NCBI GenBank assembly: GCA_002431905.1
Contig: DJER01000033.1
Coordinates: forward strand, 122,238-162,237
Origin: Christensenella sp. UBA5893
GTDB taxonomy: Bacteria; Bacillota; Clostridia; Christensenellales; UBA1242
Reading direction: 5' to 3'
Length of the DNA stretch: 40,000 nucleotides
Position numbers and translations under genes: made by a program. The notes under the pieces are model-generated. The model saw only the letters and a program-made list of their open reading frames with translations, was not told where the DNA came from and made no database searches. Below, piece after piece: positions 2,193 to 36,341 of the stretch (positions within the stretch are counted from its first letter, which is position 1; each line of letters starts with the position of its first letter).

Positions 2193-3815
2193 ATGGATTT
2201 TTTAAGCAAACTTTCACCACAATTATTAATAGCAATTGTCTTGTCGGCGATAAATGGCGTTATGATGTATTTTTTTGCAGGAAAAATGCTCCATATATTA
2301 CAACTTGGTGGCTACAAAATAAAAAGCATAAATGCTTACCTAAAAGAAACAAAATTCAAGTATATCGCAAGACTAATTATTTTGTGCTTTTTGTCTGCTG
2401 CTTGTATGATGGTTGCAAATGCATTGCTTGACGGCCATGGCGAATTTTGGAGTTATATTGGACTTATTTTCTATTTCTATTTTAGCATTGTGTTTATTAT
2501 CAATGTCTATCAAGCTCCACAAAAAACACCATTAAAACAAACTCACAGAATGAACAGACTTTCGTTTGTAGTGTTCTTGCTCTCATCGGCACTCACTTTT
2601 GGTCTTATCGCAGTGTTTACTGAATATGTCCCAAGTGTAAAATTTGGAATTATTGCAATAACACCAATATTCACATATTTGATTGTTCTTGTAAGCCATT
2701 ATATATGTGTTCCGGTTGAATTTTTGTCAAGACAAATCTATATAGGCAGGGCAAAGAGAAAACTCAAAAAAATGCCAAACTTAATAAAAATTGGAATAAC
2801 CGGCAGTTATGGGAAAACCACAACAAAACACATTCTTAATGTAATGCTTTCAAAAAAATATGATGTTTGTATGAGTCCATATAGTTTCAACACACCAATG
2901 GGCTTAACAAAAGTTGTAAACCAATACCTAAAACCTAATAATGATGTACTTATTTGTGAAATGGGTGCAAGGCAGGTCGGCGATATAGCATACCTATGTA
3001 AATTGATACAACCAAAGCACGCAATTATAACAAGTGTGTCAAATCAACACCTTTCAACCTTTGGAACAGAAAAAAATGTTTACAAGGCAAAAAAAGAACT
3101 TGTTGATGCAATAAGTGACGGCTATATATGTTTTAATGCCCAAAATCTTGGCTCAAAACAAATGTTTGACGAATGCAAAAAAAATAAAATTTTATGTGGA
3201 ATAAATAACGAAGATTGTTTTGCAAATATAACAAATATAAAAACTGACAAAAATGGCTCAACTTTTGATCTGACAATTGATAAAAAAACAATATCTTGCC
3301 AAACAAAACTTTTGGGCATTGGAAACTTGGAAGATATAGCACTTGCCAGTGGATTGGCATACACGCTTGGCGTAAAGTTGAATGAAATAAAAAGTGCAAT
3401 CACCACATTAAAACCAATGCCACATAGATTGGAAGTGCTACAAGAAAACGGACTTACAATAATCGATAACTCCTATAATGCATCGGTAGAAAGTAGTACC
3501 GAAGCTCTAAATACCCTAAAAATGTTTGATGGCGACAAGATTGTGGTAACACCGGGACTTGTTGAACTTGGGGAAAAAGAATTTGACGCAAATGTGGTCC
3601 TTGGCGAGCAAATTTCAAAGGTTGCAAGCAAAATTATAATAGTGAACGAAACAAACAAGCAAGCCCTTCAAAACGGGCTAAAACAAGGTGGTTTTAATGA
3701 AAGTAATATATACTTTACAGAAAACCTTAACCTTGCAAAAGATAAGCTAAAAGAAATAGCAAAAAATGGTGACGTAATTTTGTTCGAAAATGATTTGCCA
3801 GACAGTTATATTTAA
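2193..3815 (+). CDS. murF: MurF-like UDP-MurNAc-tripeptide--D-Ala-D-Ala ligase with an N-terminal polytopic membrane domain
   Basis: GITGSYGKTTTK P-loop at about residue 203, IDNSYNASVESS (MurF DDSYNANP-type motif), VTPGLVELGEKE. The first ~190 aa are about 5 hydrophobic helices instead of Mur-ligase domain 1. ddl lies immediately downstream. Confidence 0.8.
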   Translation: MDFLSKLSPQLLIAIVLSAINGVMMYFFAGKMLHILQLGGYKIKSINAYLKETKFKYIARLIILCFLSAACMMVANALLDGHGEFWSYIGLIFYFYFSIVFIINVYQAPQKTPLKQTHRMNRLSFVVFLLSSALTFGLIAVFTEYVPSVKFGIIAITPIFTYLIVLVSHYICVPVEFLSRQIYIGRAKRKLKKMPNLIKIGITGSYGKTTTKHILNVMLSKKYDVCMSPYSFNTPMGLTKVVNQYLKPNNDVLICEMGARQVGDIAYLCKLIQPKHAIITSVSNQHLSTFGTEKNVYKAKKELVDAISDGYICFNAQNLGSKQMFDECKKNKILCGINNEDCFANITNIKTDKNGSTFDLTIDKKTISCQTKLLGIGNLEDIALASGLAYTLGVKLNEIKSAITTLKPMPHRLEVLQENGLTIIDNSYNASVESSTEALNTLKMFDGDKIVVTPGLVELGEKEFDANVVLGEQISKVASKIIIVNETNKQALQNGLKQGGFNESNIYFTENLNLAKDKLKEIAKNGDVILFENDLPDSYI

Positions 3816-3861: not shown

Positions 3862-4971
3862 ATGCAAAATTTATTAGTATTTTATGGTGGAAAAAGCGTT
3901 GAACATGATATAAGCATTTTAACAGCCATTCAAACGATGAAAAATATTAACAAACAAAAATATAATATAATACCAATTTATCTAACAAAAAAACTAAAGT
4001 TTGTTTCTCCAAAAAATTATCTTGACACAAAGACATACCAAAGTGACAAAATGCAATGCAAAAAGGTGGAATTTTTGTATGGCGAAAGAAAAGTGAAAAT
4101 CGGCATAAAAACATACAGCATCTATTGTGCCATAAACTGCTTTCATGGGGTAACAGGCGAAGATGGTTCGCTTTATGCACTAATGAATTTGTGCGATATT
4201 CCAATAACATCTTGCTCAATTCTTGCAAGTAGCACATGTATGGATAAGGTTATAATGAAAGATATTTTCAAGTCAAATAATATACCTTGCGTTGATTACA
4301 CTCTTGTAACATACGATGATTACTTCTTAAATAGGGAAGAAACAATCAAAAACATTCAAGACCAAATAACATATCCGGTCATAGTAAAACCATCAAATTT
4401 GGGCAGTAGTATAGGCATAGATAAGGCAAATAACACAAAAGAACTGGAATATGCATTAGATATCGCATTTTGTTATGATAGGAGAGTTATTGTTGAAAAG
4501 TGCTTGGAAGATTTCAAGGAAATAAACATATCATGCCTTGGCAATAATTTTTGCGAATTATCTTGCCTTGAACAACCGCAAAATTGGAATGACTTTTTAA
4601 ACTTCCAAGACAAATACACAAAAAAAGACGTTATTTCACAAAAAATTCTCAATCCAAAACTAGAGCCAAAAGTTGAAGAAAAAATAAAAAGTTTGGCAAA
4701 ACAATGTTTCAAAATATTTGACTTGTCGGGCGTTGTAAGAATAGATTTTATGGTAAAAGATGATAATGTTTATGTAAATGAAATAAACACTGTCCCGGGG
4801 TCGCTTGCTTTCTATTTGTGGAAGGGTAAAAACATTGAATTTTTTGAACTTATTGAAAGGCTAATTGACCTTGCAATAAAAAAACACAAACAACAAAGTT
4901 TGTGTCAATTTGATTTCAATTCAAATGTCCTTGACAATTATTCAAAATCATCAGCAAAAATGCATAAGTAG
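3862..4971 (+). CDS. ddl: D-alanine--D-alanine ligase
   Basis: LVFYGGKSVEHDISILTA N-terminus, ATP-grasp core (VIVKPSNLGSSIGI), C-terminal VNEINTVPGS motif. Confidence 0.9.
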   Translation: MQNLLVFYGGKSVEHDISILTAIQTMKNINKQKYNIIPIYLTKKLKFVSPKNYLDTKTYQSDKMQCKKVEFLYGERKVKIGIKTYSIYCAINCFHGVTGEDGSLYALMNLCDIPITSCSILASSTCMDKVIMKDIFKSNNIPCVDYTLVTYDDYFLNREETIKNIQDQITYPVIVKPSNLGSSIGIDKANNTKELEYALDIAFCYDRRVIVEKCLEDFKEINISCLGNNFCELSCLEQPQNWNDFLNFQDKYTKKDVISQKILNPKLEPKVEEKIKSLAKQCFKIFDLSGVVRIDFMVKDDNVYVNEINTVPGSLAFYLWKGKNIEFFELIERLIDLAIKKHKQQSLCQFDFNSNVLDNYSKSSAKMHK

Positions 4972-5280
4972 TTATACGCATATTTTATCTAATATTGTTT
5001 TAACATTTGCACCAATATTATTTTTTGATAAGGCACTCTTTAAGGTGTCTTTTTCTTTTTGAGATAAAACCAGTCCCTCAAGAGTAAAATTCTCTGGCAA
5101 AAATATCCCGCCATTTTTCCCATTTTCACAATAAAAAGGTACACCTGCAAGGGTGAGGGAGTCAATATAACGATAAACCGTTCTTGTGCTAATCTCAAAA
5201 TTTTCAGCAATCTCTTTTGCTGTTGTCTTTTTCCTTTTTGACACAAACATAAAAATTCCAAATACCAAATATTGTTTCAT
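4972..5280 (-). CDS. stand-alone HTH regulator (YafY/DeoR N-terminal HTH_11-like, no WYL domain)
   Basis: KKTTAKEIAENFEISTRTVYRYIDSLTLAGVPFYCENGKNGGIFL matches the YafY-type HTH. Start chosen at Met12 of the track ORF (5280), with AAAGGA 8 nt upstream. Confidence 0.65.
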   Translation of the reverse strand: MKQYLVFGIFMFVSKRKKTTAKEIAENFEISTRTVYRYIDSLTLAGVPFYCENGKNGGIFLPENFTLEGLVLSQKEKDTLKSALSKNNIGANVKTILDKICV

Positions 5281-8769: not shown

Positions 8770-11700
8770 CTATTTATTCTTATTTTGTTTTTGTTGTAAT
8801 TTTGCTTGTTTCTTCTCTTCTTTAAGCTTTTTGTTTTGAGCATCTTTTGCAAGTTTTTCTTTTTTTACTTTTTCAAGAATAATGTTTCTTTGAACACCAA
8901 GCAAATATTCTGGCATCTTGTAGCCTTCAATTTTTTGTTTTAGTGATTCAACTTGATTTTCAAGGGCAGTGTGACGTTTTGCATATGCCTTAAAATCTCT
9001 TTCTTGAGCCAATGAAACTTGACCAGTTGTTGTTCTTTGAGCTTTTGCATTTTCTTTGTGAACTTCTTCAATTCTTGCAATCTCTTTTTCAACATCTTCA
9101 ATTTGTTTTTCAACTTCTCTTATCTTTTCATCTCTAACTTTTTCAGCATCTTTTCTAATTACATCACGATATAAAGTTGAATTCCTGTCATATTCACTTG
9201 CTTTTTTCTTTTCCCATTTTTTGATTGTTACTTTTTTCATAAAGTATGCAACAATTGCAATTATCAAGGCAATTGCCAAGATTAGGGAAGGTATCAAATA
9301 CCAAATTACAAGACTATTATTTTCGTCATCTGTTTTGTTGTCGTTATCATTATTGTCATTGTCAGTTGTTTTTGTATCTTCTTTTGAAACAACTAAAATT
9401 GTTTTGTCATTTTTTGCAAATTCTGTTGCTTGTGTGTATTCCAATTTTTCAATTGTTTCAAATTTAAAATTATCAAAGAATGCAACACCTGTTATATCAT
9501 CTGAGCCACTCATTAACCCAAATTTCAAACTAACATCTTTTGCTTCGGCAGGGCATACATAAATTGTGTAAGCAGTCCATTCATCATTAGTTACAACTTC
9601 TGTAAAGTATTTATCAATACCATCAAGAGCAAATATTGCACCAAATTTAGCTTTGTCTTCATCTTTAACATTTTCTTGTTTTGTGTCACCACTAAATGCA
9701 GTGTAAACTTCAATATAGAATTTATAGTATGTGTCAGCTGACAAACTTAATTTATCTTTGTTTGTAAGAGTGTAGGTAGCTTTTCCATTAACTCTGATTG
9801 CTGGCATATATTTTAATGAATTTTCATTATTTTTTGAGTTTGTAATTGAATATTGATTTTGGATTTTTCCGTCTTCAATTTTTCCATCAATAATTCCACC
9901 ATATGCAATAGGAGAGCCTACTTCTGGATTTGTACCACTTTCAAGTTTTTGTGTGTATTTGTATGGTGTGTACATTCCAAAACCATATTTTTGTTCATCT
10001 TTAAAGAAACCAAAGTTTGCAACGGTAAAGTCAATTGTTTTGTGTGATTTTACAAATTCAGCATATGTTTCATCATTCATTGAACTGTCTTGTTCAAATT
10101 TTACATTATCAACAAACAAATATCCTCTTACTGTTTCATCTTCATTTCCAAGACTTATCATAAGTTTGATTGAGTTTGAATATTCTGATGCTTTGATTGT
10201 TATAGAGTAGTTAGCCCAAGCACTTGAATATAAACCTTCGTCTGAATAAATAACATTGTTATCACTGTCCAAAACATAAACACTCATAAGTTTTCTATTT
10301 GTTGTTTGTTCAACAGTTTTGTAATCAAAAGAAATCTTTTGATATGTTTGCTTTGAAACGGTTAGTGTGTCGCTTGTAACACTTTGATATGTTGCAAGTT
10401 TGTTGTAAATCATCAAAATGTTGTTTGCGTCAACATCGACACTTGATGCTGAACTTGGATTTTTAGGGTTACTTAAATTTCCATAAGTTGCTTTGTTTGC
10501 TTCATAGAAAGGTGAGTATGTGTTAATAATTCCAACAATACCTTTGCTTTCGTCTTCTTGCTTAACTGTCCAATCTGCTGGAGCGACTGGGTATTTTACA
10601 TCTTTTTCAACTTTTGAACCAACATTAAATGCACCATTTTTTACTGATGGGTCATTTTCAATTGTTGTAAGTTTTAATGTTGCACTATTTGAAGATTCTG
10701 CATTGTCAAATTGACTCCAAGAAATCTTTTCAAATGTGATATCATCAAATACTACAGCACCGGTTGCATTATTATCTTTGCTACCAAACCATAATTCAAG
10801 TTGTAAATTTGTTTCATAAAGTTCATAACCTTTAACATAGAAGTAGTAAGGTGTGTAGTTGTTTGTTAATTTGTTTTCTGTGTTTGAAGAAATTGTAATT
10901 GTTGAAGTGTTTGCTTTGTGGTCAGTTACAAATTCTTTAAGATTTTCATCTTGTTCAACAAGTTTTGCATAAGCATTTCCACTAAAGTTTGAAGAAAGTT
11001 TTGCCCAAACTGTTATTTTGTATGTTTCATAAGGTTCAACCTTGAATGTTGTGCTCTTAAACCCAAAATATGTTTTTTGATTTGCATACATAAGCATAGA
11101 GTAGTTGTTGTCACTTGATGACATATCACTGCCAAGGTATTCAAGACCTTTTGATTGCATACTTTCTGGGTTATTGATACTTATAACATAGGCATTGGCT
11201 TTGGTTGGTAAAGCATCAACTGATTTCCAACCATGCATTGAACCTGCTTCAAAATCTGCATTTTCAATAACATCTGCCATTGTATCTCTTAAATCAATAA
11301 CATTCATATTTCTTGTACTTGAAGAAATATCATGGTCAAAATAACTCCCAGATAGTTTGTTCATAGTAACATGGTCAAAGAATACTGCATCCAAAGAATC
11401 TTTTGTTTTTGAGCCAAGCCAAAGTTCAATGTTGATTGTTTGCTTTTCAATGCCTGTTGCAATGTAAAAACTATATTCGTCCCAAACACCACTAGAAAAA
11501 TATTCAAAAGAAGTGTTTGCTGTTTCTTCATCAAGTCCAGAAATATATATTGATGCTCTTGCATTGCTTTGGGTTAGGGCATAAACATTAACCTTGTAGA
11601 ATGAGTAAGCATTCAAAGTTATTGAACTTGATTTGTAACCAATGTGGTTTTGTTCATTTTTTGAATCAACTTTTGATTTTGCGTTTATCATAAGAACGTG

Positions 11701-12045
11701 GTCGTCAAAATCATCCAAATTCTTTGAAGGGTTTTGTGTTGATGAAAGGGCATAGTCACTTGTTCTTGATGAATTGCTGAATGTGCTTTCTTTGACATCA
11801 ATAATACCATTCTTACCTGTGCTTGATCCTTGAACAGACCAACCATTTGGTGTTGATTGTAATTGTGTTGTTGAAGATTCATTAAAATCTCCATTTGTTA
11901 CAGTCACTTGTTCAAATTGCATTTCAACACTTGCATCAACGCCATTTAGCAATACCGGCATTTGTGTTGTAAGTGTAAAGCATAGGACAAGGGCAATTGT
12001 AAATACAATCTTTTTTAGTAAATTAAATTTTTTTGTCGTAGTCAT
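8770..12045 (-). CDS. large type-I membrane/surface protein: signal peptide, four CBM4_9-like beta-sandwich modules, D/N-rich linker, TM helix, K/E-rich coiled-coil cytoplasmic tail
   Basis: Start taken at Met15 of the track ORF (12045), with AAAGGTGAG upstream. Each module begins with an N(G/A)DF-type motif and ends with a GxxxFD(D/H/N)(I/V/F)xFE motif (AVFFDHVTMNKLS, AVVFDDITFEKIS, YLFVDNVKFEQDS, VAFFDNFKFETIE). TM is SLVIWYLIPSLILAIALIIAIVAYF. Confidence 0.8.
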   Translation of the reverse strand: MTTTKKFNLLKKIVFTIALVLCFTLTTQMPVLLNGVDASVEMQFEQVTVTNGDFNESSTTQLQSTPNGWSVQGSSTGKNGIIDVKESTFSNSSRTSDYALSSTQNPSKNLDDFDDHVLMINAKSKVDSKNEQNHIGYKSSSITLNAYSFYKVNVYALTQSNARASIYISGLDEETANTSFEYFSSGVWDEYSFYIATGIEKQTINIELWLGSKTKDSLDAVFFDHVTMNKLSGSYFDHDISSSTRNMNVIDLRDTMADVIENADFEAGSMHGWKSVDALPTKANAYVISINNPESMQSKGLEYLGSDMSSSDNNYSMLMYANQKTYFGFKSTTFKVEPYETYKITVWAKLSSNFSGNAYAKLVEQDENLKEFVTDHKANTSTITISSNTENKLTNNYTPYYFYVKGYELYETNLQLELWFGSKDNNATGAVVFDDITFEKISWSQFDNAESSNSATLKLTTIENDPSVKNGAFNVGSKVEKDVKYPVAPADWTVKQEDESKGIVGIINTYSPFYEANKATYGNLSNPKNPSSASSVDVDANNILMIYNKLATYQSVTSDTLTVSKQTYQKISFDYKTVEQTTNRKLMSVYVLDSDNNVIYSDEGLYSSAWANYSITIKASEYSNSIKLMISLGNEDETVRGYLFVDNVKFEQDSSMNDETYAEFVKSHKTIDFTVANFGFFKDEQKYGFGMYTPYKYTQKLESGTNPEVGSPIAYGGIIDGKIEDGKIQNQYSITNSKNNENSLKYMPAIRVNGKATYTLTNKDKLSLSADTYYKFYIEVYTAFSGDTKQENVKDEDKAKFGAIFALDGIDKYFTEVVTNDEWTAYTIYVCPAEAKDVSLKFGLMSGSDDITGVAFFDNFKFETIEKLEYTQATEFAKNDKTILVVSKEDTKTTDNDNNDNDNKTDDENNSLVIWYLIPSLILAIALIIAIVAYFMKKVTIKKWEKKKASEYDRNSTLYRDVIRKDAEKVRDEKIREVEKQIEDVEKEIARIEEVHKENAKAQRTTTGQVSLAQERDFKAYAKRHTALENQVESLKQKIEGYKMPEYLLGVQRNIILEKVKKEKLAKDAQNKKLKEEKKQAKLQQKQNKNK

Positions 12046-12136
12046 AATCTCACCTTTTAATATATTAACTTTGTTAGTATATAGCAAATAGAATTATTTT
12101 GCAAATATTTTTTGTGTATTTGTAAACAATATTTTT

Positions 12137-18822: not shown

Positions 18823-20955
18823 ATGGAAGTTTTAAGAAGTTATACACAATTAGTAAATCAAACAAAAAAAGTATTAGATTATGACATAAGCGAAACCCCA
18901 GTTTTGGACAAAATGTGTCAAGAAGATTTGGAAGATATTGCATCAAGAAGCAAAATGTGTGAAGACATAAAAGAAGTGTCACACCTAAGCGAACTGGTTT
19001 TCCAATTAAACAATTTTAGTTTTGCACTTGTAAATTACACAACAATCTTTTTGGCAATGGAAAAATATGATGAAGTAAAAGAGTTTATTTCCAAAATGTA
19101 TGCCTCCCATGTTGACACACAAAACTATGTCAGCAAATTGAAAGAGTACAATGTGGAAGAAAGATTGTTTGACAGGTTTATTGAAACTGTTATGCTTGGC
19201 AAAATAGAAAGCAAACTATATTTGCCACTTGTTCTAAAATCAATTTTTGATAACAAATCAAAATTATATGTTTGGCACGATATTGCAATGGAATATATGC
19301 AAACATATATGAGAGAAAATAATGACTTGCAAGACATATTCTCACAAAATGAAACTTTGGAACTTGAATACTTGTCTTTGCTTCTTGAATTTAACACACA
19401 AAAGGCAATAAGCATTTTGTTTAATGACCTTGCAAGAGAAAAAATCAGTGAAGAGCATGCTGAACAGTTTTTGAAAGCGTACATAAATGACACATTGGCA
19501 TACTTTGACAAAAACTTGCCAACTGATGACGAAAAGCGTTTTCACTATATCAAGGTTTTGTCGGCAATAAAAAATAACTCAAACATCGAAACAAGACTTG
19601 AAACAATTTACGAAACTGAAAAGAATGAAGAGATAAAGTCATTTTTGGCACAACGCCTTGGAATAACTGAAACATTGAATTTTGGCACATATAAGCATTT
19701 CAAAATTCTTGCACAAAAAAAGGTGACAGACATTCAAGAACGTTCACTTGGTGTTGCATTTGAAAATATGCCACTTGAATTTATTGATGAAACTTTTGCA
19801 AACAATCAGGAAAAAACATATCTCATAAACATATTCAAAGAAGAAAATAACTTGCTTAATTTGGTTAGTTTAAATTCACTTTATCAAATTTTCAAAAAAG
19901 ATAGCCTAAATAGTTTTGCTGAAAAGCTATTTGACAAACTGTCAAATAAAGACGATATAAATTCTGCAAAATGGTGTGTAAGAATGTTCTCGCTATTTTG
20001 TGAAGATATGTTTGAACGCAAAGTTTATGAATTTTTGTACACACTCTATAGACTAAACAGAAAAAAAGAAGCAGTATATCTCACAAAATGCTTAATATAT
20101 AGCAAAAAACCAAAGTTCTTGGAAATGATTACAAGATTACAAACATTTGACTTGTTTATGGCTCATTACAATGATTTTGTAAAGGTCTATGCTCAAGTAA
20201 TGAATAAATCTTGTGAAGAGATAAAAGACCTATCTTTGCCATATAACATAAGTGAAGAAAGAGTGCAGGAAGAAAAATCAAGGCTATACCAAAACTTTAT
20301 TAGTGGGCGAAAGTACTCAAAACAAATATTCAAGTCACTATTTATTGACCATCCAGTATTTAATGAATTTGCACAAAGGTTGGTTTTTGGCGAGTATAAA
20401 CAAAACAAACTATATTCAGTTTTCTTGGTAAATGGCAAAGAAACTGAGTATATATACGGCAACAACTTAGGTAATGCAGGTAATGACGTGTATATCTCAA
20501 TTGTCCATTCGCTTGATCTTGATGATAGATTTGAAAAAGTTGATTTAAGACTAAGTAATCCACTTTTTGAACAATTCAGCATAAGCAAATTTGATGTAAA
20601 AAACTTTAATAGGGCAAACTTATCCGTTTCAAATTTCTATGGAACAATTGTTGAAGGTGAAAAATTTGTTAATAACCTAAAAGCAAAGGGATTTTATCCA
20701 AATCTTAATGATTGCGAAGTGTTGTTTGATAGTTTTATAGGCAAAAATGAAATTCTTAATCTTTTGGTAGAAATTGAACTTCAAAAACCAGTATCTGTCA
20801 TCTCTCCAACAATGGTTCTTGGCAATATTCGTTTTTATAGGCTAAACGACGTTATGATGGATAAACAAAAGTACATAACAAACAAATCTCAAAGCTTAAG
20901 CTTGGCAGGAATAAACGATAGATATTTTGATTACGTTATGAGTGCAATAAGATAA
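18823..20955 (+). CDS. DUF4132-domain protein (MolR/YehI-type C-terminal domain) with a helical-repeat N-terminal region
   Basis: C-terminal FIDHPVFNEFAQRLVFGEY...VYISIVHSLDLDDRF...LSNPLFEQFSISKF follows the DUF4132 pattern (hP..l..RLVWG ... v.l.HPl.L ... QPF.QL). No P-loop seen. Confidence 0.65.
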   Translation: MEVLRSYTQLVNQTKKVLDYDISETPVLDKMCQEDLEDIASRSKMCEDIKEVSHLSELVFQLNNFSFALVNYTTIFLAMEKYDEVKEFISKMYASHVDTQNYVSKLKEYNVEERLFDRFIETVMLGKIESKLYLPLVLKSIFDNKSKLYVWHDIAMEYMQTYMRENNDLQDIFSQNETLELEYLSLLLEFNTQKAISILFNDLAREKISEEHAEQFLKAYINDTLAYFDKNLPTDDEKRFHYIKVLSAIKNNSNIETRLETIYETEKNEEIKSFLAQRLGITETLNFGTYKHFKILAQKKVTDIQERSLGVAFENMPLEFIDETFANNQEKTYLINIFKEENNLLNLVSLNSLYQIFKKDSLNSFAEKLFDKLSNKDDINSAKWCVRMFSLFCEDMFERKVYEFLYTLYRLNRKKEAVYLTKCLIYSKKPKFLEMITRLQTFDLFMAHYNDFVKVYAQVMNKSCEEIKDLSLPYNISEERVQEEKSRLYQNFISGRKYSKQIFKSLFIDHPVFNEFAQRLVFGEYKQNKLYSVFLVNGKETEYIYGNNLGNAGNDVYISIVHSLDLDDRFEKVDLRLSNPLFEQFSISKFDVKNFNRANLSVSNFYGTIVEGEKFVNNLKAKGFYPNLNDCEVLFDSFIGKNEILNLLVEIELQKPVSVISPTMVLGNIRFYRLNDVMMDKQKYITNKSQSLSLAGINDRYFDYVMSAIR

Positions 20956-32255: not shown

Positions 32256-33354
32256 TAAAATTATTATAACTGTTTTTGTTTGTATGATTGTTTTGTGCAT
32301 AATAGGTTGTGTTATGGTGTATAGTGCAAGTTCTTACTCGGCACAAAAGAACTTTCATAGCAGTACATACTTTTTAATTAAGCAAATAATCGGTTCTGTT
32401 TTGGGGCTTGTTTGCTTTACTTTTTTTACATTTTTTGATTACCAAAAACTAAAAAAATTCAAGTGGATACTTTTTATTGTTGCAGTAATTTTACTTTGTT
32501 TGGTGTTTGTTCCAAAAATAGGTGTATCAAATTATGGTGCAAAAAGATGGATAAACCTGTTTGGACTATCTTTTCAACCAAGCGAAATTGCAAAATTCTC
32601 TTTGGTACTTTTTTGTGCTTGTCATTTTGCACAACATAAAAAAAATGCAAGAAATTTACAAACATTGCTTCCAGTATTGTTTGTAGGTGGTGTTTTTTGT
32701 ATTCTTGTTATTTTAGAACCAAATATGAGCATAACAATGTGCATTGGAATAACAATGATTTGCATGATGATATTTGGTGGGTTAAGGTTAAAATATCTTG
32801 CAATGATTTTGATTCCCGCAATGTGTTTAGTCCCAGTTTTAATCATTATTGAGCCATATAGACTTCAAAGGTTAATGGCATTTATCAACCCATGGGCATC
32901 GCCACAAGGCGAGGGTTTTCAACTTATTCAATCACTATATAGTTTGGGGAATGGTGGGTTGTTTGGTGTTGGATTATTTTCTTCAAGACAAAAGTATTTG
33001 TATTTACCATTTGCAGAAAGTGATTTCATTTTTTCTATTATTTGTGAAGAATTAGGTTTCTTTGGTGCAACTATTATTCTTGTCATTTTTGCTATACTCA
33101 TATTTTCAATAATAAAAATTGCACAAAATAGCAAAGATACCTTTGGAAGTTTGCTGACGGCAGGAATTGCTTGTGTTATCGCAACTCAGGTTGTATTAAA
33201 TGTTCTTGTTATTTCGGCAAGTATGCCACCAACAGGGCTTCCACTCCCATTTATAAGTGCTGGAAGTACATCACTAATTGTATTTATGAGCGCACTTGGT
33301 ATATGTGTTAATGTTCATAAACAAAGTATAAAAATAAAAATAAACAGAGCATGA
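32236..33354 (+). CDS. ftsW: SEDS-family peptidoglycan polymerase FtsW/SpoVE
   Basis: 10-TM profile, QPSEIAKF, ESDFIFSIICEELG, PPTGLPLPFISAGSTS motifs. Confidence 0.88.
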   Translation: MKKLKIDKIIITVFVCMIVLCIIGCVMVYSASSYSAQKNFHSSTYFLIKQIIGSVLGLVCFTFFTFFDYQKLKKFKWILFIVAVILLCLVFVPKIGVSNYGAKRWINLFGLSFQPSEIAKFSLVLFCACHFAQHKKNARNLQTLLPVLFVGGVFCILVILEPNMSITMCIGITMICMMIFGGLRLKYLAMILIPAMCLVPVLIIIEPYRLQRLMAFINPWASPQGEGFQLIQSLYSLGNGGLFGVGLFSSRQKYLYLPFAESDFIFSIICEELGFFGATIILVIFAILIFSIIKIAQNSKDTFGSLLTAGIACVIATQVVLNVLVISASMPPTGLPLPFISAGSTSLIVFMSALGICVNVHKQSIKIKINRA

Positions 33355-33425
33355 CTAACTCTGTATATATATTAACATATTTGTTATAAGCAATTTTGCT
33401 GTTTATATTCAAATCTAATATTTTA

Positions 33426-33635
33426 CTAATGATAATTTCTTCCAATCAATTCGTCAATTGACATATTTAAAGCATCGGCAATTTTCCAAATATCTAAAAC
33501 ATTTGGAATATTAACTCCGTTCTCCCAATAACTTATTGAAGCATGTGTCACACCAATTAAATTTGCCAATTTTTGCTGAGATAGACCTTGCTCAATTCTT
33601 TTTTCTTTTATTGATTCACCTATAGTATTTTTCAT
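33426..33635 (-). CDS. XRE/Cro-C1-family HTH regulator (69 aa)
   Basis: IKEKRIEQGLSQQKLANLIGVTHASISYWENGVNIPNVLDIWKIADALNMSIDELI is a canonical HTH_3. It is divergent from the nuclease-like gene. Confidence 0.85.
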   Translation of the reverse strand: MKNTIGESIKEKRIEQGLSQQKLANLIGVTHASISYWENGVNIPNVLDIWKIADALNMSIDELIGRNYH

Positions 33636-33648
33636 ATTTTCTATATTA

Positions 33649-33662
33649 GTAAGAATTCTTAC
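33649..33662. promoter_or_regulatory. operator 1: perfect 14-bp palindrome GTAAGAATTCTTAC
   Basis: Abuts a minus-strand TAATAT (33648-33643) that lies 7 nt before the XRE ATG. Confidence 0.6.
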
Positions 33663-33669
33663 AAAATTG

Positions 33670-33698
33670 TTGACTTGTAAGAATTCTTACAATATAAT
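33670..33698 (+). promoter_or_regulatory. near-consensus sigma-A promoter of the nuclease-like operon
   Basis: TTGACT (33670-33675), 17 nt, TATAAT (33693-33698). ATG 33705 starts 7 nt after the -10 and has no SD, so the transcript may be leaderless. Confidence 0.65.
33677..33690. promoter_or_regulatory. operator 2: identical 14-bp palindrome GTAAGAATTCTTAC
   Basis: Lies entirely within the 17-nt spacer of the TTGACT/TATAAT promoter; its centre is 28 bp from the centre of operator 1. Confidence 0.6.
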
Positions 33699-33704
33699 AA
33701 AAGT

Positions 33705-34811
33705 ATGGATAAAAAAATGAATTATAATCAATTTTTTAATGAATTGAAAAAATCTCCTGTGTTCGCAATTTCTTTAAGTTCTAAGGAGTTATTTCACTCA
33801 AACTTTTGGGCTTGGCTCATTGAATATAACAAAGAGTTTGCAAAAGTTTTTTTTAATGACATAGATTATCAAAATATTACTACTATATATCGGGAAGAAA
33901 AACATCGTGATTTAACTATTATTGCGGGAGGGGAGGTATTTATAATTGAGAACAAGATAAAATCTCTGCCATCATCGGAACAGCTTATTAGATACCAAAG
34001 CCGCGAAAGGCATTTTCGTAAAGGCTGTATAACTGGACTTGTTAAGTTTGACAATGTACCAACTGATTGGAATTTTATTTCATACGGACAGATAGGTAAC
34101 TCCATTCGTAATATTAACAATATGTTTAGATCTGATAAATGGTATTTTCTTATTGATGAGTATGTAAATGTAATAAAGCACATAGAATCGTTATTTATTG
34201 AATTCAATGAACAGTACAAAAATAGATTTATATGTTTCGAAGAGTATAAAAAAGACCCAATGCTTAGCGAATTGGAGAGCATAAGATTTGCTGATGTATT
34301 TAAGAAATATAATGCAAATTCATTTGCTAGTTATCTAACAAATAAGATAAAAGTGGAGCTTGAAAATTTAGTTAATAACGAACAAATCAAATTGGATATT
34401 AGTTCAGGATACACAAACAAATCTTCTTTGGTTGATATTAGATATATAAAGAATAAAGACACACAAAACCAATTTTGTATTGGTATACAAATACAAGATA
34501 GCCAATATAGATTTCATGTAGAAAGGCATAAGGGTACTTTAGATTTTGGTGTAAAAAATCCATCTGGTTGTTTGTTTAATGAATTTTTGGCATATGGTTG
34601 GTTTGAAAGTTATGATAGGTCAAAAAAATTGTTTAAAAACAGACAAACAAGTATGCGTGAATCTTATTGTACATATAGCAGTGAAAGTTATAAATTTGTG
34701 TATCAATATTATAATTTGATCGGAGATGAACTAAATTTTGAGAGATTAGCATCACAAATAAAAGAAGATATGACAAAAGCCGCAAACATTATGGAAAAAA
34801 TTGACAAATGA
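33705..34811 (+). CDS. PD-(D/E)XK nuclease-superfamily protein (PDDEXK_4-like layout)
   Basis: N-terminal SKELFHSNFWAWLIEY (the E-x-HS-x-FLAWLL-type motif), then HRDLTIIAGGEVFIIENKIKSLPSSEQLIRYQ, giving D...(I/V)ENK plus QLxRY. Alternative start at ATG 33717. Confidence 0.6.
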   Translation: MDKKMNYNQFFNELKKSPVFAISLSSKELFHSNFWAWLIEYNKEFAKVFFNDIDYQNITTIYREEKHRDLTIIAGGEVFIIENKIKSLPSSEQLIRYQSRERHFRKGCITGLVKFDNVPTDWNFISYGQIGNSIRNINNMFRSDKWYFLIDEYVNVIKHIESLFIEFNEQYKNRFICFEEYKKDPMLSELESIRFADVFKKYNANSFASYLTNKIKVELENLVNNEQIKLDISSGYTNKSSLVDIRYIKNKDTQNQFCIGIQIQDSQYRFHVERHKGTLDFGVKNPSGCLFNEFLAYGWFESYDRSKKLFKNRQTSMRESYCTYSSESYKFVYQYYNLIGDELNFERLASQIKEDMTKAANIMEKIDK

Positions 34812-34818
34812 GGTATTT

Positions 34819-36048
34819 ATGGAAGATGATGCAATAATATTGACATGTCCAAATTGTGGGTCAAATAGTATAGATAAAGTTGGAGATATATTTATCTGCA
34901 ACCATTGTAAAACGAAATTTATGAAGAAAGGGAATGAATCTGCAAGTAATAAATCTATAAAAACTATAAATATAATAAATTCACAAAGTACAAAAAATAG
35001 AGTTGAATCTTATTTAATAAAAAATGATTTAACAGAAGATGATTTTTTGAAAAAAGCATTTGTATTTTTAACCAATTATAAAGAAGCTCCGCGAAATATT
35101 TTCAATGCAGAATTTTCAAATCCTAAATTAGAATATGAACATGTTTCAGTTTTAAGTTATAATTGTAAGATATCATATTCATTATCTATTCGAGTTGAAA
35201 GGCGAGTAAAAAAGAAAGTGGAAGAAGAATATTACGACCAACGTTCGAATTCGTTTAAGACACATTTGGTTGATAAGTATGTTACTGAAACATTTTACGA
35301 ACCTTACTTTGGAGAATATAGTGATATCGTTTCAACAAATGAAATACAAAACAATAAGTATTCTAGTTTTGAAAAAGATTGTATTATAGATATTCTAAAA
35401 AGCGTTTATGAAGATGATTTAGTAATGTCAAATGAAGAATATCAAGAGTTATCGTATAAACAAACAAAAAGTTTGCAAGATAGATGTGTTAATTATCTAA
35501 AGAAACATTACAAAGACTATATTACAATAGATAATTATAAAGACCTAAAATTCTTGAGCACATATGCCACTTTAGAAAACACAACAACATACAAAGTACC
35601 AATTTATAGTTTATCATTCAAATTAGATGAGAAATCTTACACATTATATTGTGTTGCAAACAATTATAGAGATTTGTTTGTTGAAGATTTAGTAGATGAG
35701 CAAAAAGAAAAACTCATAAACAATTACGTTGAAAAAAAAGACAAAATTTTTAAGCCATCATATTACATGTTTACTGCATTTTCAATAGCATTTTTGATTG
35801 CAATTCTGTTATCGTTTTTTATTACAATTGCTCAAGGTACACAAACGCTAAATTATACTCTATTTTACATTTGGTATGTTATAATTTGTGTCCTATTTAT
35901 TACCGAGAAGTGTATATCATCGAAAAATAAAAAAGAATTAAATATTAAGGTAAAAGATTATGAAAATAATAGTCGCATAAAGAAAAAAGAGAGTTGTTTA
36001 AATTATTGTAAAAAAAATAACATTACGAATCTCGATTTTAATGAATGA
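34819..36048 (+). CDS. zinc-ribbon protein with two C-terminal TM helices, function unknown
   Basis: CPNCGSNSIDKVGDIFICNHCKTKF (CxxC-x15-CxxC), ~280 aa unassigned, TM helices YYMFTAFSIAFLIAILLSFFITIA and LFYIWYVIICVLFI, basic tail. The GAGG SD overlaps the upstream stop. Confidence 0.6.
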   Translation: MEDDAIILTCPNCGSNSIDKVGDIFICNHCKTKFMKKGNESASNKSIKTINIINSQSTKNRVESYLIKNDLTEDDFLKKAFVFLTNYKEAPRNIFNAEFSNPKLEYEHVSVLSYNCKISYSLSIRVERRVKKKVEEEYYDQRSNSFKTHLVDKYVTETFYEPYFGEYSDIVSTNEIQNNKYSSFEKDCIIDILKSVYEDDLVMSNEEYQELSYKQTKSLQDRCVNYLKKHYKDYITIDNYKDLKFLSTYATLENTTTYKVPIYSLSFKLDEKSYTLYCVANNYRDLFVEDLVDEQKEKLINNYVEKKDKIFKPSYYMFTAFSIAFLIAILLSFFITIAQGTQTLNYTLFYIWYVIICVLFITEKCISSKNKKELNIKVKDYENNSRIKKKESCLNYCKKNNITNLDFNE

Positions 36049-36074
36049 CTTGTTTAATAAAAAGGATTGGTTAG

Positions 36075-36176
36075 ATGATTATGGAAACTGACAAAATGAA
36101 AAAATTCTCTAATATATTGTTTGCAATAGTATCAGTGATAGCACTGATTGCTATTATTGTTGGCTTTGTAGCCTAA
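36075..36176 (+). CDS. possible 33-aa single-TM micro-protein
   Basis: Hand translation MIMETDKMKKFSNILFAIVSVIALIAIIVGFVA. AAAGGA lies 8-9 nt upstream. Below the ORF-track cutoff. Confidence 0.3.
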   Translation: MIMETDKMKKFSNILFAIVSVIALIAIIVGFVA

Positions 36177-36341
36177 CAGTTAATTTATTGTATTCTTAGG
36201 AAATCACCAGGCATAGATGGCGAATCTTATTTTTTTGCTGAAATAATAAGATTTTTGTAAAATGCCTTGTGATTTTTTTGTAAAATAAACGTTGTAACTC
36301 ACAACAAAACAAATATATTCATACTTTATTTTGGGGGAAGT

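Follow-up and report, generated by a model that had tools for sequence, protein, structure and literature searches.

The question raised by this locus was what a group of four open reading frames (ORFs) is doing between ftsW and murA, inside the division and cell wall (dcw) gene cluster. The locus lies in a 40-kb stretch (40,000 nucleotides, hereafter the window) of Christensenella sp. UBA5893 contig DJER01000033.1, where a small divergent XRE-type gene and the ORFs named ORFii, ORFiii and ORFiv separate the two cell-wall genes. The original prediction, made from the letters of the DNA, had taken them for a foreign cassette of defence type, and all four ORFs were found where it had placed them. 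Based on all analyses, the favoured reading, to which a probability of roughly 0.6 was given, is that the segment is a horizontally acquired, repressor-gated defence cassette composed of a nuclease and its membrane partner. The defence-type reading fitted the contexts of both protein families. The nuclease activity of ORFii, the anti-phage function and the physical or functional coupling of ORFii to ORFiii are what we infer from the features described below.

The insertion itself was established directly. Species-representative genomes were scanned with the MurA protein of the window, and seven relatives were obtained. The ftsW-murA junction was empty, with the genes about 50 bp apart, in L012 (93% MurA identity), L013 (90%) and L014 (74%); the first two are the closest relatives, both metagenome-assembled genomes of uncultured Clostridia, and the third is a Christensenella-labelled genome. 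When the window was aligned with L012 and L013, the identity stopped after GTATAAAA (position 33333) and restarted at TAACTCACAAC (position 36295). Therefore, a segment of about 2961 bp was concluded to have replaced about 8 bp of the ancestral spacer. The borders were mapped to the base, and as the cassette was absent from these three relatives, the locus was not a core one shared by the whole lineage. The cassette proposed earlier thus was an insert, but one slightly wider on the left, where its border had been put at 33355. The left end falls within the final ftsW codons, so that the C-terminus of FtsW was rewritten from ...KQSIKQ at the empty site to ...KQSIKIKINRA in the window. The insert-bearing genotype recurred on contigs of at least six samples, where the proteins were 100% identical, and the public gene calls on the identical contigs listed the same four genes.

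The composition of the insert was only partly as anticipated. Its GC content of 26.6% was the lowest among the 2961-bp stretches of the window (outside the insert the minimum was 28.1%, the mean 31.2% and the standard deviation 1.4), hence the AT-richness noted by eye was genuine but modest. The GC content of third codon positions did not differ clearly between the genes of the insert and those of the flanks, therefore the donor was probably a similar low-GC organism. As stated in the original prediction, no integrase, transposase or methyltransferase was present in the insert according to the ORF listing and the Pfam search. The repeat scan found no terminal inverted repeats at its ends. An autonomous mobile element (insertion sequence, transposon or integrative element) was rejected on the lack of a transposase or integrase and of such repeats, and a classical type II restriction-modification (R-M) system was rejected because none of the four ORFs is a methyltransferase. 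The only repeat at the insert ends was the hexamer TAACTC (33356-33361 and 36295-36300), the single candidate for a target duplication, which may equally reflect microhomology or chance. In two relatives of 74% identity, L015 and L016, this junction was occupied by genes for a 143-aa GNAT acetyltransferase and a 329-aa membrane protein of the Acyl_transf_3 family. Since this cargo was unrelated, the comparison suggests that the junction is a recurrent, permissive insertion spot in the lineage rather than a site chosen by the cassette. That a place inside the operon would favour keeping the cassette, as the original prediction had it, is a conjecture, and the comparison points to a tolerant site more than to selection for this cargo.

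The same module was found in an unrelated context, which together with the empty junctions bore out its foreign origin. In L001 (a Logan contig) and L026 (an ENA contig), homologues of the XRE gene (89% identical), of ORFii (66%) and of ORFiii (56%), together with a gene for a 74-aa protein with an N-terminal transmembrane (TM) helix, adjoined an ABC transporter, and no dcw genes were nearby. The DNA similarity between the window and L001 (72.6%) extended from the stop codon of the XRE gene into ORFiii, and the ORFii stop codon of L001 overlapped the ORFiii start (ATGA). Judged by these comparisons, the XRE-ORFii-ORFiii module appears to move as a unit.

ORFii was identified as a predicted nuclease of the PD-(D/E)XK type. 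It matched PF14281 (PDDEXK_4) over residues 22-99 with 25.9 bits (gathering score 22.3, E 1.1e-5), and 344 homologues of similar length were collected, many of which carried a precomputed match to the same family. In the alignment of 41 sequences (A4), residues E28, H31, S32, N33, W35, D69, E82, N83, K84, K86, Q93 and Y97 were invariant. The AlphaFold2 (AF2) model, with a mean predicted local distance difference test (pLDDT) score of 93.9, placed E28 at the start of helix 29-41, D69 at strand 70-74 and E82-x-K84 in strand 77-84. The order of helix 29-41, strands 58-63, 70-74 and 77-84, helix 91-99 and strand 104-111 was the canonical helix-strand-strand-strand-helix-strand arrangement of the PD-(D/E)XK fold (PMC3424549). 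The hallmarks claimed for this protein were thus upheld for the core, its motif and its fold topology, but the spacing had to be corrected from D-x13-IIENK to D69-x12-E82-x-K84. The core occupied residues ~20-126 and was followed by a C-terminal alpha/beta domain of 170 residues (~196-367), in which G260, Q262, W299 and Q334 were invariant and for which no match was found in Pfam, NCBIfam or PDB-sequence profiles. ORFii as a whole had no match in the PDB sequence-profile search. In the public gene calls the protein starts at the second ATG (33717, 364 aa).

The PADLOC search linked ORFii to an existing candidate family. The PDC-S26 model was matched at E 2.8e-10, a second PDC-S26 model covered residues 51-272 at E 2.1e-8, and models of this family matched 39 of the 41 members of the ORFii alignment (best E 1.3e-15). 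The novelty proposed for the system was therefore reduced: ORFii is, on profile evidence, probably a divergent new member of the known candidate family PDC-S26 (PDDEXK_4), and literature searches returned no published test of PDC-S26. When the ORFii family was compared by profile with the PvuRts1I-like nuclease described below as a partner of an ORFiii relative, the outcome was negative (hhalign probability 0.3%). At 80 further metagenomic loci the neighbours of ORFii relatives included WYL/WCX, DUF2779, SLOG, RelB/YafQ, REase-ARP, SLFN helicase, CHAT/TPR and DNA methylase genes. The contexts were variable and defence-island-like, and most members looked solitary or differently partnered. At L009 (6395-7135) a 49%-identical ORFii homologue was followed, 10 nt later, by a gene for a 246-aa protein unrelated to ORFiii, whose Cys-rich N-terminus, coiled coil and single TM helix make up a loosely analogous layout.

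ORFiii follows ORFii after 7 nt, and its GAGG Shine-Dalgarno sequence overlaps the TGA stop codon of ORFii, exactly as described previously. The protein was confirmed to be a zinc-ribbon protein with two TM helices. The ribbon was formed by C10 and C13 of a CPNC motif and by C27 and C30 of a CNHC motif (nt 34846-34908), and was followed by a disordered linker, a central beta-rich domain (residues ~60-290), TM1 (residues 316-338, nt 35764-35832), TM2 (residues 346-366, nt 35854-35916) and a Lys-rich tail. The hydropathy and the K-rich flanks of the TM segments predict an N-in/C-in topology with both termini in the cytoplasm. In the AF2 model (pLDDT 87.9), very long beta-strands (103-140, 145-176 and 240-269) and three helices were followed by a long helical hairpin.

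Unlike ORFii, the ORFiii protein matched no described family in the libraries searched, and on this side the claim of novelty appears to stand. A word-indexed search returned only an identical protein and the L001 homologue, and a profile search (alignment A3) only three sequences. An exhaustive HMMER search of 1.84 billion representatives yielded 101 relatives at E <= 1e-3, 18 of them at E <= 1e-10. The family architecture consisted of a CxxCGS...CxxCG ribbon, a linker, a domain of ~230 aa with the consensus blocks F.R.A...LA....P.DIF, YSASIGYDR, TVTDW.P.SG and LPGD..KD, two hydrophobic helices and a conserved charged tail. The ribbon was absent in some members and accompanied by extra ribbons in others, and the window protein fell into a divergent subgroup with degenerate consensus blocks. 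For the central domain no match was obtained in Pfam, NCBIfam, PADLOC and PHROGs or, whether by sequence or with Foldseek, in the PDB, and only zinc ribbons were matched when ORFiii was searched against PDB sequence profiles. PADLOC models gave nothing below E 0.01 for ORFiii and nine of the ten tested relatives, the scattered matches being only to the zinc ribbon or TM helices. The weak structural matches of the model were to long-strand proteins (aerolysin-type toxins, secretins and FliF) with TM-scores of about 0.1, and were taken as no match. A Foldseek search of BFVD with the ORFiii model returned two proteins of the giant viruses Yasminevirus and Edafosvirus annotated as 'DnaJ-like subfamily C member 3' (E 2.6e-6 and 7.5e-5), with TM-scores of only 0.23-0.28.

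Further, the small ORFiv that ends the cassette was found to have counterparts. In L001, L109, L019-L021 and L111 the ORFiii homologue was followed by a gene for a small protein whose first residues are Lys-rich and which has a single TM helix near its N-terminus; this held for every tightly coupled case with visible downstream sequence. The position of these companions was conserved and their sequence was not, as no mutual similarity was detectable. This recurrence in tightly coupled loci supports ORFiv as a real gene, probably conserved by position.

The genomic contexts of ORFiii relatives gave the main indication of what the cassette may do. Eight informative contexts were inspected, and in six of them a nuclease adjoined the ORFiii relative. 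These nucleases belonged to four unrelated families (PDDEXK_4, PvuRts1I/SRA, GIY-YIG and GmrSD), and in four of the six contexts the coupling was tight, by stop/start overlap or by gaps of no more than 20 nt. Besides the window (XRE gene, PDDEXK_4 nuclease, ORFiii after the 7-nt gap and the 33-aa TM peptide) and L001/L026, a 34%-identical homologue in L019-L021 was located directly 3' of a PvuRts1I_N+SRA nuclease after a 20-nt gap; the L019 island also held a GmrSD_N/HNH protein, an EcoRI-type methylase and a phage integrase. In L109 (28%) a divergent HTH_3 gene, an LEM-3-type GIY-YIG nuclease, the homologue after a 10-nt gap and a 36-aa TM ORF reproduced the architecture of the window with another nuclease and another operator. 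A homologue was found 3' of a full-length GmrSD gene in L110 (27%), and in L022/L023 (31%) it preceded a gene for a 296-aa protein whose C-terminal GIY-YIG domain scored exactly at the threshold. In the last two contexts the homologue stood alone, beside tsaD (L024/L025 and L112-L115) or behind a divergent XRE gene with paired palindromes (L116). The co-occurrence of ORFii and ORFiii homologues was thus recovered, but in one other lineage only (L001/L026), and the nearest relatives of ORFiii each adjoined a different nuclease. Therefore, the recurrent unit would be any nuclease with a member of the ORFiii family rather than ORFii with ORFiii.

The regulatory region was the other part of the cassette that could be read directly. 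The 69-bp divergent spacer between the XRE gene and ORFii held a promoter of the form TTGACT-17-TATAAT and two perfect, identical palindromes, GTAAGAATTCTTAC, one of which flanked and the other overlapped this promoter; the tightly controlled promoter claimed for the cassette was accordingly supported. In L001 the first operator was kept with one mismatch (GTAAGAATACTTAC), the second operator was identical and both promoter hexamers were kept. In L109 two TTACACCAATTGGTG palindromes bracketed a TTGACT...TATAAT promoter beside the divergent HTH_3 gene (3032-3141), and in L116 paired palindromes AGAACnATAGTTCT lay around the promoter beside a small divergent XRE gene (4835-5000); the layout was that of the window and the operator sequences were unrelated to it. 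The ATG of ORFii (33705) begins 6 nt 3' of the -10 hexamer, with the same spacing in L001 (site 33693-33707), hence the ORFii mRNA may be leaderless. The XRE protein consisted of a helix-turn-helix (HTH) only, with no sensor domain. PADLOC HTH and 'Control_protein' models matched it, the latter at E 1e-5 to 1e-6, and the NCBIfam antitoxin matches were all far under the cut-off (for example, couple_hipB 43.5 against 71.65). In profile terms the protein resembles controller or Cro-type proteins more than antitoxins.

It was proposed that the XRE repressor, acting on the two identical palindromes, would hold the three-gene operon at a low or buffered level, and that its binding to the operator within the promoter spacer would exclude RNA polymerase. 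ORFii would be a PD-(D/E)XK (PDDEXK_4, PDC-S26-like) endonuclease. Since it has no partner methyltransferase, host DNA would have to be spared by a rule other than methylation, possibly by recognition of modified or otherwise foreign DNA or by a low, repressor-limited dosage. ORFiii, translationally coupled to ORFii, would be a cytoplasm-facing zinc-ribbon and beta-rich protein held in the membrane by its helical hairpin, and ORFiv would be supplied as the last product of the operon, a small single-TM peptide. Because the relatives of ORFiii are coupled to interchangeable nucleases, two of them from type IV families, ORFiii is likely the constant membrane partner, which might position or gate the nuclease at the envelope where phage DNA enters. 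Alternatively, it may provide a second, membrane-acting layer if cleavage fails.

Several results count against this proposal. All functions of the cassette were derived from sequences and models, and the nuclease fold of ORFii was based on the motif, the Pfam profile and the order of secondary structure rather than on structural superposition; the expected core order was canonical, but Foldseek found no significant PDB neighbour for the ORFii model, nor for that of ORFiii. The match to PDC-S26, itself a candidate family, was partial (38 bits, residues 47-158 on profile positions 86-206 of 400, ~112 aa). No modification-reader domain was recognised in ORFii among those looked for (SRA, DUF262/GmrSD_N, McrB-type and similar); its C-terminal domain may still hold a reader of a fold not recognised by the profiles. 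No members of the ORFii family were found in phage or plasmid collections, and three partial matches were obtained in IMG/VR; ORFiii and a canonical relative had no tblastn match in plasmid and phage collections, and the ORFiii family was not found in IMG/VR by a locus scan with the narrower alignment A6. Only one of the 80 further ORFii loci (L026, with the L001-type module) contained an ORFiii relative, therefore the ORFii family, as far as these loci indicate, generally works without ORFiii. Finally, eight contexts are a small sample, and two of the eight, the tsaD-linked ones and L116, had no adjacent nuclease.

GmrSD and PvuRts1I enzymes work alone. With this and the two contexts lacking a nuclease, the adjacency of ORFiii relatives and nucleases could be a co-packaging of independent genes. 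In such a case ORFii would be a stand-alone PDC-S26-like nuclease travelling with an unrelated membrane protein (ORFiii with ORFiv), which would serve as a single-gene defence, a superinfection-exclusion factor or in a non-defence membrane function, and the adjacency would be defence-island packing. The overwhelming absence of ORFiii from ORFii loci, the solitary tsaD-linked clade, the L116 homologue behind its own XRE/operator promoter and the self-sufficiency of the two enzymes agree with this explanation. However, four independent nuclease-ORFiii pairs showed stop/start overlaps or gaps of 7-20 nt with a Shine-Dalgarno sequence at the upstream stop codon, which points to co-translation rather than loose island packing, and the nearest ORFiii relatives (28-56% identity) each had a different nuclease in the same position, as is typical when a constant component takes swappable effectors. 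The independence of the genes was given a low probability.

A selfish addiction module, similar to toxin-antitoxin systems, was considered unlikely and weaker than the defence reading. In such a module the nuclease or the membrane protein would be the toxin, neutralised by the XRE protein or by the other partner, and loss of the module would kill the cell. The likeness of the XRE protein to the HTH antitoxins and repressors HipB, Y4mF, MqsA and PezA in NCBIfam (at sub-threshold scores), the missing methyltransferase that would protect host DNA, the complete conservation of the cassette across the samples and its movement without any mobility gene would all suit an addiction module. Yet the XRE gene, divergent and encoding a bare 69-aa HTH, differs from the usual type II antitoxin gene, which is co-transcribed with its toxin; at 368 and 409 aa the candidate toxins are large, the ORFii relatives are solitary or stand beside WYL regulators, and type IV restriction enzymes, for which an antidote is unnecessary, are among the partners of ORFiii relatives. 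Moreover, close relatives live without the cassette and have a clean empty site. A type II toxin-antitoxin system with an HTH-XRE antitoxin was rejected on the divergent gene and the below-cut-off antitoxin matches. The least credible explanation, given hardly any weight, was a housekeeping accessory of cell division or the cell wall, taken up by the dcw cluster because its nuclease or its membrane protein would serve in septation, sporulation or the segregation of chromosomes. Although the cassette lies between ftsW and murA in the chromosome of a sporulating Firmicute, encodes a membrane protein and may feed murA transcription from its right junction, such a role was contradicted by the presence/absence pattern, with the cassette missing from the closest relatives, the same module beside an ABC transporter elsewhere, unrelated cargo at the same junction in L015/L016 and neither family linked to dcw genes at other loci.

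The defence cassette was further compared with known systems. ORFii and its relatives that match PDC-S26 are ~360-aa proteins in variable, defence-island-like contexts, and ORFii exceeded the Pfam threshold of PF14281; PDC-S26 is, however, a single-gene candidate, whereas in the window and in L001/L026 ORFii is coupled to the gene of a membrane protein and stands under the control of an XRE repressor. Type IV enzymes such as GmrSD and PvuRts1I/SRA are similar in being nucleases with no methyltransferase, and behind true GmrSD and PvuRts1I_N+SRA genes the relatives of ORFiii took the place that ORFiii has in the operon of the window, but no SRA, DUF262 or other domain for modification reading or NTPase activity was recognisable in ORFii. 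To our knowledge, a membrane partner has not been described as required by type IV enzymes, and literature searches turned up none. R-M systems regulated by C proteins share a small XRE-type HTH and paired palindromic operators at the nuclease promoter; in contrast, the cassette has no methyltransferase, its regulator gene is divergent, where that of a C protein precedes the nuclease gene and is co-transcribed with it, and the operator in the promoter spacer predicts plain repression, whereas C proteins activate and then repress. Zorya (ZorAB with ZorC/D) and Kiwa (KwaA/KwaB) resemble the cassette in concept only, in that a component anchored in the membrane is encoded together with a partner that targets nucleic acids. 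They are not related to it in sequence or fold (of 32 ORFiii-family members one was matched by KwaA, at E 0.004, and the ZorA matches, confined to the TM helices, all had E > 0.2), and the cassette is far smaller and built of a zinc ribbon, a beta-rich domain and a TM hairpin.

A broader and more tentative proposal, of fairly low probability, is that the ORFiii family represents a new, widespread class of membrane-anchored immune component that plugs into interchangeable nucleases. Members of this conjectural class would be built of a zinc ribbon, a beta-rich domain of elongated shape in the cytoplasm and a TM hairpin, and in most cases the gene for a small single-TM peptide would come next. 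It is conceivable that in this modular arrangement of a nuclease and a membrane gate the nucleases are tethered or licensed at the site of phage-DNA entry, or that the membrane component mounts an abortive response when they are blocked. The partner family and the swapping of nucleases appear to be undescribed: neither the ORFiii family nor its small TM companion nor the swapping was present in the catalogues queried or in the searchable literature, and the pairing was not described in what was returned for PDC-S26, PDDEXK_4 and zinc-ribbon or TM partners of GmrSD or PvuRts1I. If the pairing is functional, a membrane-located partner would be added to restriction-type nucleases thought to act alone, type IV ones included, and a handle would be gained on about 100 or more uncharacterised proteins missed by current defence-finding tools. 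The locus is also clean for experiments, with four genes in 3 kb, a defined promoter and operators and natural empty-site relatives, and a natural nuclease-swap series is present across metagenomes.

Table. Features of the insert at the ftsW-murA junction and of the compared loci (window positions unless a locus is named).
Feature	Position	Strand	Basis or remark
Inserted segment	33334-36294		Empty-site alignment; lowest-GC stretch
Hairpin with T-run, 3' of the XRE gene and over the new ftsW stop codon	33344-33364	-	Terminator-like scan; inside the insert
XRE/Cro-C1-type HTH repressor, 69 aa	33426-33635	-	HTH_3, E 2.7e-18
Operator O1, 14-nt palindrome	33649-33662		Between the XRE start codon and the -35 hexamer; 7 nt 5' of -35
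Promoter of the ORFii-iii-iv operon	33670-33698	+	Best consensus match in the region, 11/12
Operator O2, identical palindrome	33677-33690		Within the 17-nt promoter spacer
ORFii, 368-aa PDDEXK_4-family predicted nuclease	33705-34811	+	PF14281 above gathering score; PDC-S26, E 2.8e-10
ORFiii, 409-aa zinc-ribbon, beta-rich, two-TM protein	34819-36048	+	ORF listing, hydropathy, AF2
ORFiv, 33-aa single-TM peptide	36075-36176	+	Annotated in every public copy
Non-coding right end of the insert	36177-36294		No ORF
Promoter-like TTGTAA-16-TATATT across the right junction	36292-36319	+	Promoter scan; 23 nt 5' of murA
Small TM protein after ORFiii homologue	L001 9241-9465		
Small TM protein after ORFiii homologue	L109 4977-5087		
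Small TM protein after ORFiii homologue	L019-L021, downstream ORF		
Small TM protein after ORFiii homologue	L111 1162-1320		
GNAT (143 aa) and Acyl_transf_3 (329 aa) cargo at the ftsW-murA junction	L015 8158-10000; L016, same span		

The locus documents a permissive insertion point in the conserved dcw cluster, where the insert affects both neighbours, as it rewrites the C-terminus of FtsW and may rebuild the murA promoter. The flanking genes were identified by Pfam as ftsW (FTSW_RODA_SPOVE, E 1.9e-97) and murA (EPSP_synthase family, E 1.8e-84). At the left end, in the span 33320-33364 that also holds the altered FtsW tail, the hairpin in the Table is a candidate terminator for the XRE gene, brought by the insert and possibly bidirectional. 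At the right end, no plus-strand terminator was found at 36177-36294 by the terminator-like scan, and no Rfam elements were found in or around the insert. The promoter-like site across the right junction takes the TTG of its -35 hexamer from the insert; the empty sites have ATATAA or TATAAC there. Since the insert separates murA from ftsW and no plus-strand terminator follows ORFiv, murA transcription may depend either on the hybrid site or on polymerase that reads through from the promoter of the cassette, a repressed one.

The rest of the window was the core chromosome of a sporulating Firmicute, with genes for SpoIVA, SMC, FtsY, PlsX and Mur ligases. Among the core genes, a minus-strand ORF of 1105 aa (8770-12087) gave nothing in Pfam at E <= 1e-5. 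The 710-aa protein encoded at 18823-20955 on the plus strand, just upstream of plsX and smc, contains a DUF4132 domain (E 5.9e-10).

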